From a virus, in IMG/VR virus record IMGVR_UViG_3300002056_000004, positions 1-52,787 of that record: a stretch of 52,787 nt of DNA. One strand, 5' to 3'. The notes beneath the pieces were generated by a model. The model had not been told where the DNA came from and searched no databases. It saw nothing but the letters and a program-made list of their open reading frames with translations. The translations under genes and the position numbers were made by a program. This document shows positions 3,930-52,787 of the stretch, piece by piece; position 1 is the stretch's first letter, and every line of letters starts with the position of its first letter.

Positions 3930-4622
3930 ATGAATCGTGTTTCATGGACATGGCGACATGCGTTTGCCAGATCAGAATTATCAAGCACGACTAAGCTTGT
4001 TTTGCATACGATTGGGTTGCACATGGATGAAACAGGCCATGGAGCCTATCCAACGGTTGCGCAAATTATGCGCCTTTCAAGCTTATCAAACAAGGCTGTT
4101 ATTACTCATATAAGAATAGCAATTCAGCAAGGATGGCTGCGCTCAAAAGTGCATGGATTTAAGGGGCAAAAATGGAAAAATCACGAGTACGAAGCGCATT
4201 GGCCTGATGAAAATGGAGCTTATGAAGGTGGTGAACCTCAGTCCAATTTAACTGATAAGCTGGTGAACGTCAGTCCAAAAGGTGGTGAACGTCAGTCCGA
4301 AAAGGTGGTGAACGAGGTTCACTCTAAAGTACCAATACAACATTCCAATAATATTACCCCCCTTAGTCCCCCCAAGGGGAAAGCGCATCTTTTGCCTGAT
4401 GATTGGACGCCTTCAGAGGCAGGGCGGGATTTAGCCGTTAGTCTCGGAGTCGATTGGGTTTCAGAACTTGAGGTCTTTCGGGACTACTGGATTTCAGTGC
4501 CGGATGCGAAAGGCCGCAAAAAGAATTGGGATGCTACGTGGCGCAACTGGGTTCGCCGCTCGAAGCCTTCTAACAAAAAATCCAATTCTCAAACCATGGT
4601 GGAGGCGTTTGCAAGAGCATGA
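3930..4622 (+). CDS. Replication initiator (lambda O-like, winged-helix N-terminus) containing the origin iterons
   Basis: YPTVAQIMRLSSLSNKAVITHIRIAIQQGWL wHTH. Four iterons lie inside the coding sequence, as in lambda O. Confidence 0.6.
   Translation: MNRVSWTWRHAFARSELSSTTKLVLHTIGLHMDETGHGAYPTVAQIMRLSSLSNKAVITHIRIAIQQGWLRSKVHGFKGQKWKNHEYEAHWPDENGAYEGGEPQSNLTDKLVNVSPKGGERQSEKVVNEVHSKVPIQHSNNITPLSPPKGKAHLLPDDWTPSEAGRDLAVSLGVDWVSELEVFRDYWISVPDAKGRKKNWDATWRNWVRRSKPSNKKSNSQTMVEAFARA
4227..4322. repeat. Origin iterons, four copies of GGTGGTGAACGTCAGTCC-like 18-mers
   Basis: ggtggtgaacctcagtcc at 4227-4244, gctggtgaacgtcagtcc at 4259-4276, ggtggtgaacgtcagtcc at 4281-4298 and ggtggtgaacgaggttcac at 4304-4322, followed by an AT-rich stretch. 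Confidence 0.7.
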
Positions 4623-5521
4623 ATATTTCATTGCGTGATATTTACAGCATAAACGATGAACAAGCTCATCAAATATTGAGAAGTAGGAGATGGAATGACA
4701 ATGACGGTAATCCTGTTTGTCCTAAATGCGGTTGTCCAGACTACTACGATCTTGCAACGCGACAGGTTTATAAGTGTAAAGGCTGTCATCATCAGTATTC
4801 TGTAACTTCTGGAACGTGGTTTTCTGGCAGAAAAATATCACCTTCAGAAATAATTGGAATAGTTTTTCTTTTTGCTACTGCTAAAAAGGGTATTTCTAGC
4901 TGCCAGCTTTCAAGGACAGTAAGCATCGACCAAAAGTCAGCTTACTATATCAACGAGAAAATACGTAAAGCAATAATGCTAGAGGTTCAATCTCAAAAGC
5001 TTGATGGTATTGTTGAAATCGATGGTGCAACTTTTGGTGGACACAGAAGGCACGCTAATATGGCTCAAGACTTCTCTGGAGCGTTCAAGCGATACACGAT
5101 TAAGAAAACTAAAAATCGACGTGTCATTACAATTATGAAACAGCGTGGAGGTCGAACAGTACCTTTTATCGGCTTCAAAGAATCTGACGCCTTAGAAGCA
5201 ATTACTAAAACTGTATCCTCTGGCGCAATTATTCAAGCAGATGAGGCAAGGGCGTGGGATGGGCTTCTTCGGTTATATGACATGATGCGAATTAAGCACT
5301 CTTATGCTTTTTCATCAAACCAAGCTTGCACCAACAACGCTGAAAGTTTTTTCGCTCAAATGCGAAAGGCTCATAGTGGTACTTTTCAGCAAATTTCAGG
5401 CGACAAGTGGGACCAATACGCTTGTGAAATTGCTTGGAAGCGTGACCACACTAAACTGTCAGCAATCGAGCAAACAGCAAAAATACTTGACCTTTGCTTA
5501 CAGCAGAAAGAGGCGGCATGA
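4619..5521 (+). CDS. IS1595/ISXO2-type transposase-like protein embedded in the replication operon (no IRs)
   Basis: Zn-ribbon CPKCG..CKGCHH. DDE-type core VEIDGATFGG / IIQADEARAW / NNAESFFAQMRK, parallel to the bona fide IS copy at 10265. ATGA start/stop overlaps with both neighbours. Confidence 0.7.
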   Translation: MNISLRDIYSINDEQAHQILRSRRWNDNDGNPVCPKCGCPDYYDLATRQVYKCKGCHHQYSVTSGTWFSGRKISPSEIIGIVFLFATAKKGISSCQLSRTVSIDQKSAYYINEKIRKAIMLEVQSQKLDGIVEIDGATFGGHRRHANMAQDFSGAFKRYTIKKTKNRRVITIMKQRGGRTVPFIGFKESDALEAITKTVSSGAIIQADEARAWDGLLRLYDMMRIKHSYAFSSNQACTNNAESFFAQMRKAHSGTFQQISGDKWDQYACEIAWKRDHTKLSAIEQTAKILDLCLQQKEAA

Positions 5522-8456: not shown

Positions 8457-8842
8457 CCCACTCCATCACCTTCCCGTGGCCTAACAGCATATTACTGCCG
8501 AACAAGGCCATGAATGCAAACAGGTTTGTTTTGGCGCGTTATGTGAAGGCTGCAAGGGCTGAGGGCTTCTATGAAACAAGGTCGCAGATTGGCATGCACC
8601 ACGGGCTAAGCGATCCTGTGTCAATTCAATACGAATTTACGCCACCTATGAGGCGCGGAAACGTGCCGGATGATGATGGCATGGTTGGCATGATGAAGCC
8701 TTACAGGGACGGGATAGCGGATGCAATCGGCATTGATGACCGTCATTTCAAAATGGAAAAGCACATAACCCATGAACGCAAAGGCAAGGGGAAAGTTGTT
8801 GTGCATTTGAAATCAATTACAGAGGAAAACCAAGATGCGTGA
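8453..8842 (+). CDS. RusA-family Holliday junction resolvase
   Basis: N-terminal [13 protein letters not shown] and acidic catalytic region [28 protein letters not shown] parallel E. coli RusA. Confidence 0.75.
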
Positions 8843-9311
8843 AATCAAACTAATCATATTGGCGGCTATATTTGCCATAATTGCTTCCATAGGCATTCTG
8901 AATGTTAAGCCGGCCAATGCCAGCCCAGCCGCTTATAATATGGCAAAGAAGTATATCGGCCTTCATGAGCGTAAGAACACCCGAGCGTTGCGAAATTCGC
9001 TTGGGGTAAATCCAAGAAATTTACCGTGGTGCGGCGCCTTTGTTCGGCTTGTCCATAAGCGGATCGGAAAGCCAATCCCAAAAGGGTACCTGGCATCCGT
9101 TAACTGGCGCAATGTTGGGCGCTCTGTGTCTCTCAGGAACGCCCGAAGAGGCGATGTTGTGATTTTGCGGACAAAGGTTGGCAATCACGTTGGCTTCTAT
9201 GCAGGGCGAAACAAAAACGGATCTGTTCGCATCCTTGGGGGAAACCAGTCGAATATGGTCAAGGTTTCCAACTTTCTCGCCTCATCAATTCGCAGCATTA
9301 GAAGAATGTAA
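8835..9311 (+). CDS. Secreted TIGR02594-family (NlpC/P60-CHAP-like) putative peptidoglycan hydrolase
   Basis: Signal peptide/TM at the N-terminus, then YIGLHE..LPWCGAFV..GDVVILR..NHVGFY..LGGNQSNMV, the TIGR02594 signature. Confidence 0.7.
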   Translation: MREIKLIILAAIFAIIASIGILNVKPANASPAAYNMAKKYIGLHERKNTRALRNSLGVNPRNLPWCGAFVRLVHKRIGKPIPKGYLASVNWRNVGRSVSLRNARRGDVVILRTKVGNHVGFYAGRNKNGSVRILGGNQSNMVKVSNFLASSIRSIRRM

Positions 9312-9323
9312 AGGACAAAACCA

Positions 9324-9758
9324 ATGAGCAATAAAATAGACGGCGTAAAGCCATTTGGTGAGTTGAGTTGGAAGCAAAAAGCAAAGCTTTATCGAGCGGC
9401 TCTTGATGGCAAACAAATTGAGTATAGATTTTACAATCATAAAATTTGGTACATTAATGATTCAACACCTGGTTGGCATAGCCTTGCGTGCTACCGCATC
9501 AAGCCAGAAGAAGCACCAGAGCTCATTCCGGACAGCATAGATTGGAGCCATATTGATGATCGGTTTAAGTTCATTTTTAGAGACGAGGGCGCTAATCCTG
9601 CCGTATATGCCAGCACCAAAAGGCCAAATCCAATACACAACGTGGGATTATGGCAGCCAAGTCTAGGCACGGAATTTGTTCGAATTGACAATTTTCTGAC
9701 GTCTTACAAACGCGGTACAGTTGACTGGAAAGACAGTCTTGTAGAGAGGCCGGAATGA
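9324..9758 (+). CDS. Hypothetical protein
   Basis: 144-aa ORF, the second-to-last gene of the early-right block. No recognisable motif. Confidence 0.55.
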   Translation: MSNKIDGVKPFGELSWKQKAKLYRAALDGKQIEYRFYNHKIWYINDSTPGWHSLACYRIKPEEAPELIPDSIDWSHIDDRFKFIFRDEGANPAVYASTKRPNPIHNVGLWQPSLGTEFVRIDNFLTSYKRGTVDWKDSLVERPE

Positions 9759-9958
9759 TGAAGTTATCACAAGCACACCCTAGAATTTGGTATCTTGCAA
9801 AGTGGATAGAATTTTTTCTGTTTTGTTTTTTCATCTTGCCCTTTGTACTTATTTTTGTGGATTCTGTAATTTGGGGACAGTTCGATTTTGGTGAAGCGAC
9901 CTCATATTCTAGGGGTGTTTTTGTAGGCGCGCTTTTCTACAAGGTATTTTCAGAATAG
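9755..9958 (+). CDS. Small membrane protein
   Basis: 67 aa with ATGA overlap to the upstream gene and two hydrophobic segments (FFLFCFFILPFVLIFV, GVFVGALFY). Confidence 0.5.
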   Translation: MMKLSQAHPRIWYLAKWIEFFLFCFFILPFVLIFVDSVIWGQFDFGEATSYSRGVFVGALFYKVFSE

Positions 9959-10213
9959 CGGAATGGCAACACAAGGTAAGGCCAAAAATAGCTAAGGGTT
10001 CGGTGATTCTTTTTTGCAAATCATCTTTATTTTTTGTATTATTATCATGTAATCGCGTGGCATGGATTAAACAGTTAATATCACTGCGACCTAAGACCTG
10101 ACAACAGGCTGGCGGGGTTGATCACCCGCTATAGTAATTACCCATCGTTTGCGTGTCATTCGATCCATGATTTAATTCATGCGGAAAGCTAACAAATAAA
10201 GGTAATTATCCCC

Positions 10214-10242
10214 TTGACATACGTAAGCTAATTTCCTATATT
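10214..10242 (+). promoter_or_regulatory. Transposase promoter overlapping the left IR
   Basis: TTGACA (10214-10219), 17 nt, TATATT (10237-10242), then AGGAGA SD before ATG 10265. Confidence 0.6.
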
Positions 10243-10264
10243 TTAGGCATAGGAGATAGCAACA

Positions 10265-11128
10265 ATGAAACCTGCAAACGTTCGTCAATTCTTTCAACAG
10301 TTCCCTACAGATGAGATATGCCTAGAACACCTTTTCAAGGTTCGTTTTGGTCAAGGTCATACCTGTTCAAAGTGCAAGAAAAAGTCGAACTGGTATCGTA
10401 TTCAGGCTGAACAAGCTTTCTCTTGCCAGTGGTGCGGTCACCACCTTCACCCTATGGTTGGCACTATCTTTGAAAAGAGTTCAACACCGCTTCAATTGTG
10501 GTTCTTTGCTATATTCCTATTCACCACCACCCGTAATGGCGTATCTGCCAAGGAATTGGAGCGCCAGCTAGGTGTTACCTATAAGACTGCATGGCGCATG
10601 GGTCACAAAATACGCGAACACATAGCGGCAGTCGATGGTGACGATATGCTTGGTGGTGTTGTAGAAGTCGATGAAACGTTTGTCGGTGGTTACAAAAAAG
10701 GCGGTCAAGGTGGTAAGGGTAAGGACGTTGTTCTTGGTATGGCTGAAAAGGGTGGCGATATCGTTACCGAAGTCGTTACAGGTAGAACTTCGAAAGACCT
10801 TATCCCTCACATTGTTGACCATGTAGAACTTGGTTCGGAAGTACATACTGACGAACACCGCTCCTATCTTATCCTAAGTGAAACTGATGATTACGAACAC
10901 AAGTCAGTTGACCACTCCAAAAAGCAATATGTTGGCGCTACAGGCGAAACAACAAACATGATTGAAGGTTTCTTCTCACAATTGAAAAGAACAATTGGTG
11001 GCACTCATATTTGGGTATCTGGCAAGTATCTTGCAAACTATGCCAAGGAATGCGAATACCGCTTTAATCGTCGGAAGTCGCCAGCTTCGATGTTGCCTGA
11101 GTTGTTGACGACTTTTCCGAAGCCTTAA
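10265..11128 (+). CDS. IS1595-family (ISXO2-like) DDE transposase
   Basis: Zn-ribbon CSKCKK..CQWCGH. DDE core VEVDETFVGG / VHTDEHRSY / NMIEGFFSQLKR. Confidence 0.88.
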   Translation: MKPANVRQFFQQFPTDEICLEHLFKVRFGQGHTCSKCKKKSNWYRIQAEQAFSCQWCGHHLHPMVGTIFEKSSTPLQLWFFAIFLFTTTRNGVSAKELERQLGVTYKTAWRMGHKIREHIAAVDGDDMLGGVVEVDETFVGGYKKGGQGGKGKDVVLGMAEKGGDIVTEVVTGRTSKDLIPHIVDHVELGSEVHTDEHRSYLILSETDDYEHKSVDHSKKQYVGATGETTNMIEGFFSQLKRTIGGTHIWVSGKYLANYAKECEYRFNRRKSPASMLPELLTTFPKP

Positions 11129-11221
11129 TCACAAAATCAATCGCATCGGTATCGCCAGTTAATTGCTGGCGATCCTTGATGAACTTATCGAGTTGTCCTG
11201 AATTTCTAGCTTGATTTAGGT

Positions 11222-11587
11222 TCATTTTTTTGCCGCATCCGCCTCTAATATTTTAAGTATTCTTTCTAATTGCTCTGCATTTTTTTCTGAACGCACAGTT
11301 AATCCTGAGGCAGACAACCCTCCATCAAACCTATCACCCGCAAACGACATTACAGCAATCATTATTCCCAGTATTGCTACAGTACTTGTCACCCCTGTTC
11401 CAATAATTAGCCAAAAGTTCTGACCTTTCATTTCGGCTAACTCTTTAGCAATTTGAGATTCAGCGGTTATCATCGAGTTTTGAACATCCTTTCTTACCAA
11501 TTCTAGACAAGCATCAAGCTCTCGTCCAGTTACGTAGTCTGAATTATTCATATTTTCGACGATTGGTTCAGAACTGGTATCAGTCAC
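11222..11587 (-). CDS. IS passenger gene 2: coiled-coil protein with one TM helix (XhlA-like topology)
   Basis: 121 aa. N-terminal helical region, TM segment FWLIIGTGVTSTVAILGIMIAVMSF, short charged tail. Overlaps passenger gene 1 by 8 nt. Confidence 0.6.
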   Translation of the reverse strand: MTDTSSEPIVENMNNSDYVTGRELDACLELVRKDVQNSMITAESQIAKELAEMKGQNFWLIIGTGVTSTVAILGIMIAVMSFAGDRFDGGLSASGLTVRSEKNAEQLERILKILEADAAKK

Positions 11588-11897
11588 GGGTACGTTTCCC
11601 CCGTTTAGTTGTGTACCCTAGCGCATGCATTGAAAATTGGTCAATCTTACCACAACTTCTGCACTCAACAAAAATTAAGGGAGTAACTTTATTATTAACA
11701 TGATAGTCTTGAGGTATGCTAAATGTAACCCCTGTATAGGGTATAGGATGAATAAAATGCTCCCCTGATTGGCCACACCATTTACATTCTTTGTTGCCAT
11801 TTGGAAACAGCTGTTTCTGCATCGACTTAATAATAGACTCAGAAAGTTTTAGAGGATTTTCGCCACTCAAGTCTGGCACTTTTAATTCTTTAACCAA
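11580..11897 (-). CDS. IS passenger gene 1: small zinc-ribbon protein
   Basis: 105 aa. TTG start 5 nt after GGGAGA. Two CxxC pairs (CKWCGQ .. CRSCGK) and a basic C-terminus. Confidence 0.55.
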   Translation of the reverse strand: MVKELKVPDLSGENPLKLSESIIKSMQKQLFPNGNKECKWCGQSGEHFIHPIPYTGVTFSIPQDYHVNNKVTPLIFVECRSCGKIDQFSMHALGYTTKRGKRTRD

Positions 11898-12288
11898 TTC
11901 GATCTCCCAGGTATTTGAAAGTATTTATGAATTGAATCGTGCGTTGCGTCAACTACCTATGCCAAGGGGATAATTACCCAAATAAACAAAAAGGCTTCCA
12001 ATACTCCTTCGCTGAGTTGGCAATGTTGTTCTGCGAAGTTCTGTAATGATTTTGGGGAATCTTCGCCCTGATTATCTAGTCCTGTTAATTCAGGCGCATT
12101 GAGCCAACCGACTCGCTAACCAAGCCCCGTCATTCCTTACCAGAGTGGCGGGGTTATTCATTACAAGGGATGCACGGGAAATAGCTTCAACAAAAACAAT
12201 CGTGGGTTTTGCATAAATCGTTTCGCTTACGTAACAATTCTGATATAAACATATATGCATATTCGTTTTCTCAAAACTGCGAGGCGTT

Positions 12289-52571: not shown

Positions 52572-52787
52572 CTATGCTTGCTTCAGGATTTGAAGGAATG
52601 ATTGAGCTTGACGCTCAATTTCGACATCGGCAGCACCGGCGGTACGGGCGGCATAGGCGGCAAAACGGGCGGCATAGGCGGCTAAACGGGCGACATAGGC
52701 GGCATAGGCGGCGGCATCGGCGGCGGTACAGGCGGCGGCATAGGCGGCATAGGCGGCGGCATCGGCGGCGGTACAGGCGGCGTCATG
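52572..52787 (-). CDS. C-terminal part of the Ala-rich-repeat protein (continuation of 493-1; the last 49 nt duplicate 1-49)
   Basis: In-frame reading ..AAACTAADAAAYAAYVARLAAYAARFAAYAARTAGAADVEIERQAQSFLQILKQA, with stop TAG at 52574-52572. Confidence 0.7.
   Translation of the reverse strand, partial: HDAACTAADAAAYAAYAAACTAADAAAYAAYVARLAAYAARFAAYAARTAGAADVEIERQAQSFLQILKQA
52694..52783. repeat. Tandem 45-nt coding repeat (two units) within a longer GCC/GCG-rich degenerate repeat region starting near 52640
   Basis: cataggcggcataggcggcggcatcggcggcggtacaggcggcgg at 52694-52738 and again at 52739-52783 (last base differs). Shorter cataggcggc subunits lie upstream. Confidence 0.85.

Follow-up and report, generated by a model that had tools for sequence, protein, structure and literature searches.

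The DNA analysed here is the 52,787-nt stretch of IMG/VR virus record IMGVR_UViG_3300002056_000004 (positions 1 to 52,787, hereafter the window, to which all coordinates refer), and it contains an intact, recently transposed insertion sequence (IS) of the IS1595 family that carries a small operon of passenger genes. The element spans 1778 bp (10201–11978) and is bounded by terminal inverted repeats (IRs) of 25 nt each; the left IR (IRL; 10201–10225, + strand, GGTAATTATCCCCTTGACATACGTA) and the right IR (IRR; 11954–11978, − strand, located by an inverted-repeat search) are complementary at 23 of 25 positions (92%), and the IR sequence has two matches in the window where none is expected by chance. 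Immediately outside the IRs is an 8-bp target-site duplication (TSD), CAAATAAA, with its left copy at 10193–10200 and an identical right copy at 11979–11986. Because the TSD is perfect, we consider the insertion to be recent. Between the IRs are a rightwards transcribed and intact transposase gene (10265–11128, + strand; 287 amino acids [aa]) and three leftwards transcribed genes on the − strand, namely g1 (11580–11897, TTG start), which encodes a 105-aa Zn-ribbon protein, g2 (11222–11587, GTG start), which encodes a 121-aa bitopic membrane protein, and g3 (11064–11225), which encodes a 53-aa acidic protein and was recognized from the list of open reading frames (ORFs), a protein alignment (A1) and a hidden Markov model (HMM) search.

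The transposase matches DDE_Tnp_IS1595 (9.5e-35) and, at its N-terminus, Zn_ribbon_IS1595 (2.4e-9) in Pfam, as well as the NCBIfam model transpos_IS1595 (NF033547; 4.4e-61; score 206 bits, cutoff 75). Both characters of the IS1595 family are present, a DDE domain with an N-terminal Zn ribbon on the one hand, and IRs with an 8-bp TSD on the other. The IRs begin with GGTAATTAT, and the motifs D(ETFVGG), D(EHRSY), E(GFFSQLK) and ECEYRFNRR can be read from the transposase translation. In the ISfinder table the ISNwi1 subgroup has the IR consensus ggnnatTAT and a DDEK(+ER4) signature; the element may belong to this subgroup, given its IR start (GGnnATTAT type), a TSD of 8 bp and a signature of the DDEK type, and its length of 1778 bp presumably falls within the size range of the cargo-bearing members. 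The transposase gene is preceded by a promoter match (TTGACA-17-TATATT, 10214–10242, + strand, 11 of 12 consensus positions), the −35 hexamer of which sits within IRL. The equivalent position in IRR reads TTGGCA here and TCAGCA in several relatives, and other relatives hold TTGACA at both IRs; promoter activity of the IRs, either outward or inward, could differ among IS copies. Searches at the DNA level of the IS against PLSDB plasmids and INPHARED phages gave distant transposase matches or none, and no uninterrupted version of the target site was found in viral contigs.

Insertion sequences are usually regarded as carrying a transposase alone, with the transporter ISs (tISs) of the IS1595 family as the main exception, and to our knowledge tIS cargo has hardly been catalogued. 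The element in the window is a tIS, with g1 and g2 inside the IRs, between the transposase stop (11128) and IRR, and with unrelated cargo in the corresponding slot of its relatives. Only two IS families, IS1595 and IS66, are stated to include tISs (Siguier et al. 2009 being the study cited for them). The kind of element is thus already known, and the window element resembles described tISs in its IS1595-type DDE transposase with Zn ribbon, its terminal IRs, its 8-bp TSD and the position of the passengers between the transposase gene and IRR. In contrast, literature searches that recovered the tIS concept gave no description of the g1/g2 cargo pair, of a modular family to which it belongs, of an antisense g3 throughout the IS group, or of defense cargo in IS1595 elements.

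The three − strand genes form a translationally coupled operon, g1-g2-g3, that is convergent with the transposase gene. Genes g1 and g2 share 8 nt (GTGACTGA), g3 is coupled to the g2 stop codon by an ATGA overlap, and g3 then runs 65 nt antisense into the 3′ end of the transposase gene. An original prediction made from this sequence had described two overlapping − strand genes between the transposase stop and the right IR, with a Shine-Dalgarno sequence of their own and a possible promoter reading inwards, and most of this description is borne out. Both genes and their 8-nt overlap are where it had placed them, and a GGGAG Shine-Dalgarno sequence (11904–11908, − strand) lies 6 nt 5′ of the g1 TTG codon and is conserved in two other loci, L075 and L040. 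The promoter is the more tentative part. A promoter-like TTGACG-N17-CATAAA is present just inside IRR (11952–11924, − strand) and the same arrangement recurs in the diverged copy L075, but a consensus scan makes no call there; we regard an IRR-proximal inward promoter as plausible. That the cassette consists of two genes was correct in so far as it is a passenger cassette, but the coupled third gene, g3, had been missed, and cargo is not peculiar to this copy, as will be seen below.

The closest relative of the element (L046) is on a metagenomic contig of 1669 bp and shares this organization. Of g1 it has the 45 codons at the 3′ end (60% identical), joined through an 8-nt overlap (ATGTCTGA) to a g2 homologue (57–58% identical, depending on how the two are aligned), and downstream of g2 there are a GTGA overlap, g3, and an antisense transposase gene whose product is 82% identical to that in the window. 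The 8-nt overlap is also kept in L020 and L071, and the assigned start codons and the overlap itself are further backed by homologues that align from residue 1.

The g1 protein has two CxxC pairs (C38xxC41 and C79xxC82) with H66 between them, a basic tail (KRGKRTRD), and a predicted pI of 9.1, and its AlphaFold2 model has a pLDDT of 85. An exhaustive phmmer search with g1 against 1.84 billion representative proteins gave 17 matches including itself, i.e. 16 relatives, the best at 2e-21; fourteen of the matches are co-linear small proteins of 99–121 aa. Residues C38, C41, T55, F59, H66, C79, C82 and G94 are invariant in the g1 family alignment (A4), and g1 fits the family pattern CxxC ... T ... 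F ... H ... CxxC-G ... F ... G within that size range. The genomic contexts of g1-family genes were taken from single locus look-ups.

The g2 protein is predicted to contain an N-terminal coiled-coil helix (residues 21–52 in the AlphaFold2 model), followed by a second helix (57–120) that includes a single hydrophobic segment at about 58–83 (Kyte-Doolittle peak 2.12) and ends in a charged helical tail of 38 residues after the transmembrane (TM) segment; the model as a whole is an extended helix with a pTM of 0.34. Both the CxxC pairs with basic tail of g1 and the coiled coil, single TM helix and charged tail of g2 had been anticipated in the original prediction. A profile search started from three g2 sequences yielded at least 152 relatives, and in an alignment of 50 of these (A3) the residues D85, R86, F87, D88 and G90 are invariant, forming a DRFDGG motif (residues 85–90) directly after the TM helix. 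The window g2 scores 3.8e-25 against the A3 HMM and has the TM segment, the motif and the coiled-coil N-terminus of the family. A tblastn search with two g2-family proteins against phages and plasmids gave no match.

A first, word-indexed protein search had returned no g1 homologue and a single g2 homologue, and this nearly empty result, together with the lack of any family annotation, is what could be said for the view that g1 and g2 are merely frames left open by chance in a part of the IS that encodes no protein. The exhaustive phmmer and profile searches overturn it: the orphan appearance of both genes is a sensitivity artefact, and the 16 g1 relatives with invariant Cys and His residues, the g2 relatives, the confident g1 model, and ratios of nonsynonymous to synonymous substitution (dN/dS) well below 1 refute the chance-frame explanation, to which we give virtually no weight. 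By the Nei-Gojobori method and with L046 as the comparison, dN/dS is 0.075 for g2 and 0.19 for the C-terminal 45 codons of g1, as against 0.069 for the transposase gene itself. With homologues and low dN/dS values of this kind, g1 and g2 are, judged from sequence comparison, protein-coding genes under purifying selection, and each belongs to an unnamed family.

The relationships of the IS were examined in a set of 37 loci encoding transposase relatives with 37–72% identity, mostly from marine Alphaproteobacteria, and several patterns emerge. First, 17 of the 37 loci have clear IRs of the type GGnnATTATCCCCTTGACA, and all 17 of these ISs are 1.66–3.18 kb long and have extra DNA 3′ of the transposase gene, so that the carriage of cargo is general among them. 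Secondly, 28 of the 37 loci have a g3-like ORF placed as in the window, overlapping the 3′ end of the transposase gene in antisense (alignment A1 and HMM search); these ORFs encode proteins of 53–86 aa with the motif L..A.K.G.LEDFI.EHE, and over the codons outside the transposase overlap the dN/dS of g3 is 0.23–0.46. Since g3 is kept so widely, it is the conserved small ORF of the IS group itself, and the genes 5′ of it are exchangeable cargo. Searches of g3 against Pfam and NCBIfam gave no match and a PDB sequence-profile search gave noise only; g3 is a candidate for an IS-encoded regulator, or it may underlie antisense control of the transposase. Thirdly, these comparisons bear on whether g1 and g2 might be accessory factors for transposition, e.g. 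a Zn-ribbon DNA-binding regulator and a membrane tether. The basic character of the g1 Zn-ribbon protein and the convergence and overlap of the operon with the transposase gene are compatible with such roles, but most related ISs lack g1 and g2 and have unrelated cargo in their place, only g3 co-varies with the transposase, and the pair is found in three loci without a transposase nearby (L063, L067/68 and L070). We therefore dropped this explanation, which is very improbable.

Two further observations concern the behavior of these ISs. The DNA 5′ of the g1-like gene in L075/L076 contains two IRs of the IS1595 type, spaced by about 140 bp (L075 positions 57–85 and 196–224), a sign that related ISs in that sample may have inserted in tandem or one within another. 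In L053, L054 and L055, all from a single metagenome (JGI 3300000217), one IS end bearing a g1-like gene is joined to three different flanks; this IS is therefore multicopy, and presumably active in the source metagenome.

The g1/g2 pair is not confined to ISs. Survey of all fetched loci with the A3 and A4 HMMs, with partner classes defined from BLAST clusters, identified six independent loci in which a g1-family gene lies directly 5′ of, and overlaps, a g2-family gene. Three are inside ISs of the same group (the window, L046 and L064) and three have no IS: L063, where the pair is 3′ of a phage terminase gene, L067/68, where it is 3′ of a Cro/CI-type helix-turn-helix (HTH) gene, and L070, which looks chromosomal. 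The Zn-ribbon and g2-family genes are thus a conserved two-gene module also present in prophage-like and chromosomal loci outside ISs, and the possibility raised beforehand, that the pair would prove not to be conserved as a unit elsewhere, can be set aside.

Both components also occur with other partners. In L053–55 the g1-family gene is paired with a gene whose product is g2-like and co-linear but has diverged, NFDHWVGG replacing DRFDGG (BLASTP 2e-4 and hhalign 6e-4), and in L075/76 a g1-family gene is followed by a gene for a two-TM protein. Conversely, g2-family genes elsewhere are preceded by genes for unrelated proteins of 90–130 aa that represent at least two other partner types; a recurrent second class is seen in L020, L041, L047, L056 and L065, and further classes in L040, L042/L060, L050/51 and L052. 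Among 24 non-redundant g2-family loci, seven have the g2-g3-transposase arrangement, and the remainder are in viral contigs or chromosomes, e.g. that of Roseobacter fucihabitans.

The window begins and ends with the same 49 nt (1–49 and 52739–52787), within a GGC-rich repetitive stretch, indicating circular assembly of a whole phage genome; the window is thus a circularly assembling temperate-phage genome of about 52.7 kb rather than a prophage with host flanks. It encodes a CI-like S24 repressor and a GpA terminase, an integrase-like protein, recombination proteins that are RecT/YqaJ-like and SSB-like, and a portal protein. The original prediction had the IS delivering its cargo into a prophage, of which the delivery into a phage genome stands, but a prophage state is not demonstrated by a circular assembly free of host flanks. 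The insertion site is intergenic, between a lysis-like block, comprising an NlpC/P60 gene (8835–9311) and a gene for a small membrane protein (9755–9958), and the packaging genes. The phage also encodes a second IS1595-type protein (4619–5521, + strand; 300 aa; NCBIfam transpos_IS1595, 98 bits), which is 26% identical to the IS transposase and has apparently kept the catalytic D/D/E residues. Its gene is within the replication module, with ends that overlap the neighboring genes, and no terminal IRs were found; the protein could be a transposase homologue that has been domesticated or is resident in the phage.

What the pair does has to be inferred from context, because no curated library names either family. 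Two aspects of that context are informative. The first is the cargo of the sister ISs. In L004 (3957–4952), L012 (3976–4440), L024 (4015–5738) and L029 (4084–5628) the cargo slot contains defense candidates, and the cargo of this kind among sister ISs includes a 331-aa protein matching PADLOC PDC-S42 (6e-63), M78 peptidases that are CapP/RmrA-like (PADLOC, 1e-32 and 1e-17), an XRE-M78 protein beside a DUF4411 protein, and a Schlafen/AlbA_2 ATPase matching a pAgo-associated PADLOC model (1.5e-38). This suggests that ISs of the group serve to transport conflict genes. The second is the location of several g2-family pairs outside the ISs. In the two independent prophage-like loci L047 (2510–4255) and L065 (2313–3713) the partner and g2 genes are directly 3′ of, and codirectional with, a CI-type repressor gene encoding HTH_3 and Peptidase_S24 domains, and in L052 and L068 a g2-family pair is 3′ of Cro/CI-type HTH genes. 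It is directly after a CI-type repressor that genes for superinfection exclusion and abortive infection, expressed in the lysogen, are typically located. The support that sister-IS cargo and repressor-adjacent copies give is circumstantial and anecdotal, but it hints at a conflict or exclusion role.

Taken with the toxin-antitoxin-like coupling of the two genes and the pattern of a conserved effector with variable partners, these contexts lead us to favor, tentatively and at somewhat less than even chances, a reading of the g1/g2 module as a mobile-element conflict device, similar to superinfection-exclusion, abortive-infection or toxin-antitoxin (TA) systems. A conflict module had also been proposed in the original prediction, and the circumstantial part of that proposal has gained from the sister-IS cargo with PADLOC matches and from the repressor-adjacent pairs in L047 and L065, but neither PADLOC nor the XhlA and holin families provide a match to sustain it. 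There are partial parallels with prophage superinfection-exclusion or abortive-infection modules that have membrane components, e.g. RexA/RexB of lambda and SieB of P22: the g1/g2 set comprises genes for a soluble protein and a small membrane protein and is carried by mobile elements, and the L047 and L065 copies follow a CI-type repressor. However, there is no homology with these proteins, the single TM helix of g2 contrasts with the four of RexB, and the pair in the window lies between lysis-like and packaging genes, outside the immunity region.

Several results weigh against a conflict role and should be set beside these contexts. In Pfam the best match of g1 is Lar (PF14354) at 14.4 bits, with a cutoff of 28.6, and g2 has none; NCBIfam contains no match for g1 or g2. 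With PADLOC-DB v2, g1 has no match and g2 matches only E1-E2 at 0.016, and among 74 family members and partners the best PADLOC score is 5.9e-4 for a single member, which we regard as noise. Ten family members match phrog_4293, a PHROG to which no function is assigned. Sequence-profile searches of the PDB with g1 and g2 gave noise, i.e. generic Zn ribbons and, for the coiled coil, haemagglutinin HA2. The best Foldseek neighbors of the g1 model are generic Zn ribbons with E values of 0.28 (PDB) and 0.026 (BFVD), neither significant, and Foldseek with the g2 model, a long helix, was uninformative and gave no significant match. Remote-homology comparison through PADLOC and Foldseek, proposed at the outset as a check, thus produced no defense-system or fold match for either protein, and the earlier statement that the pair is not recognizable as any named system agrees with the results from Pfam, NCBIfam, PADLOC, PDB and Foldseek. 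Much of the sister-IS cargo is likewise without an assigned function. Finally, in the viral contigs L050/L051 the g2-family pair is among genes for large proteins, one with a weak cell-wall-hydrolase match below the Pfam cutoff, and these neighbors may leave room for a role in the phage infection or lysis cycle.

For g1, the nearest known proteins are the Lar-type and other small phage Zn-ribbon proteins (PF14354 and PF09855), with which it shares two CxxC knuckles in a beta-rich ribbon; small uncharacterized phage Zn-ribbon proteins are also its best Foldseek neighbors, below significance. It scores under every curated threshold, however, and differs in an additional N-terminal helix and the conserved His. 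Assignments of g1 as a Lar-type or MqsA-type Zn protein were dropped as they have no HMM support.

The L050/L051 contigs are one of the observations that could favor an alternative, in which the pair has a role in the phage life cycle, such as the timing of lysis, a holin/antiholin-like function or another membrane step of infection, and the IS acquired it simply as cargo of neutral effect. This draws also on the likeness to XhlA and holin-type proteins noted in the original prediction, on the presence of g2-family genes in viral contigs, and on one of the 74 members, which touches a PHROG holin family at 1.3e-3. The likeness holds for topology, as g2 and the proteins of PF10779 and the holin families are all small and combine a coiled coil at the N-terminus with a single TM helix, but does not extend to family membership: neither g2 (E≤1) nor any of 50 relatives (E≤0.01) matches XhlA or a holin in Pfam. 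Moreover, g2 has the DRFDGG motif after the TM helix and a further C-terminal helix, is always accompanied by a small upstream partner, and is found next to repressors or in ISs and not in lysis cassettes; its assignment as an XhlA or holin protein was dropped for want of HMM support. As to a life-cycle role more generally, a number of copies reside in chromosomes or ISs and have no phage genes close by, the placement after CI-type repressors in L047 and L065 favors lysogenic over late expression, and the phage in the window has separate lysis-like genes (8835–9958). We therefore think this alternative distinctly unlikely.

Another alternative takes the pair to be an addiction module, stabilizing the IS or the replicon that carries it by TA-like post-segregational killing, with g2 as a membrane toxin and g1 as a labile protein antidote. 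In classic type II TA pairs, too, two small genes follow one another and overlap, and the 8-nt stop/start overlap kept in L046, the location inside a mobile element, and the interchangeable partner classes add to the similarity; sister ISs, furthermore, carry the TA-like XRE-M78 and DUF4411 pairs. On the other hand, neither protein resembles a known toxin or antitoxin family in Pfam or NCBIfam, no autoregulatory DNA-binding domain is recognized in g1, nor an antitoxin fold by Foldseek, and the putative effector is in the membrane, where toxins that have a protein as antidote are unusual. The repressor-adjacent position in prophages suits exclusion at least equally well, and an addiction function, while worth bearing in mind, seems rather unlikely.

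If the g1/g2 module is a conflict device, a simple scheme can be proposed for how it might work. The g2 protein would be the conserved membrane-acting component, and the small upstream protein, which is interchangeable among loci, would be its specific regulator or a partner that recognizes the trigger; in the window the 8-nt overlap could ensure that g1 and g2 are made in a fixed ratio. Carriage on the IS would spread the module, which for its part may promote retention of the IS. We also speculate on a more far-reaching version, although we consider it rather unlikely: that g1/g2 exemplify a modular family, as yet undescribed, of immunity systems with two genes and a membrane effector, acting by superinfection exclusion or abortive infection and composed of a bitopic DRFDGG protein and interchangeable small trigger-recognizing partners (the Zn-ribbon protein and at least two others), with the ISNwi1-type ISs acting as dedicated shuttles for defense cargo, and with transposition tied to expression of the cargo through the g3 antisense overlap.

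Whichever reading of the pair is correct, small modules of changing identity occupy the cargo slot of one IS group, and several match anti-phage defense candidates, and the presence of a copy inside a phage genome means that a phage has gained a possible exclusion module by transposition. Should the pair not be a conflict module, there is still a clean tIS annotation and two new families of small proteins. Should it be one, a compact membrane-effector family with swappable partners would join the catalogue of defense systems, the conserved antisense ORF g3 would offer a testable handle on IS self-regulation, and ISs of minimal size would be seen to carry immunity genes between hosts and phages.

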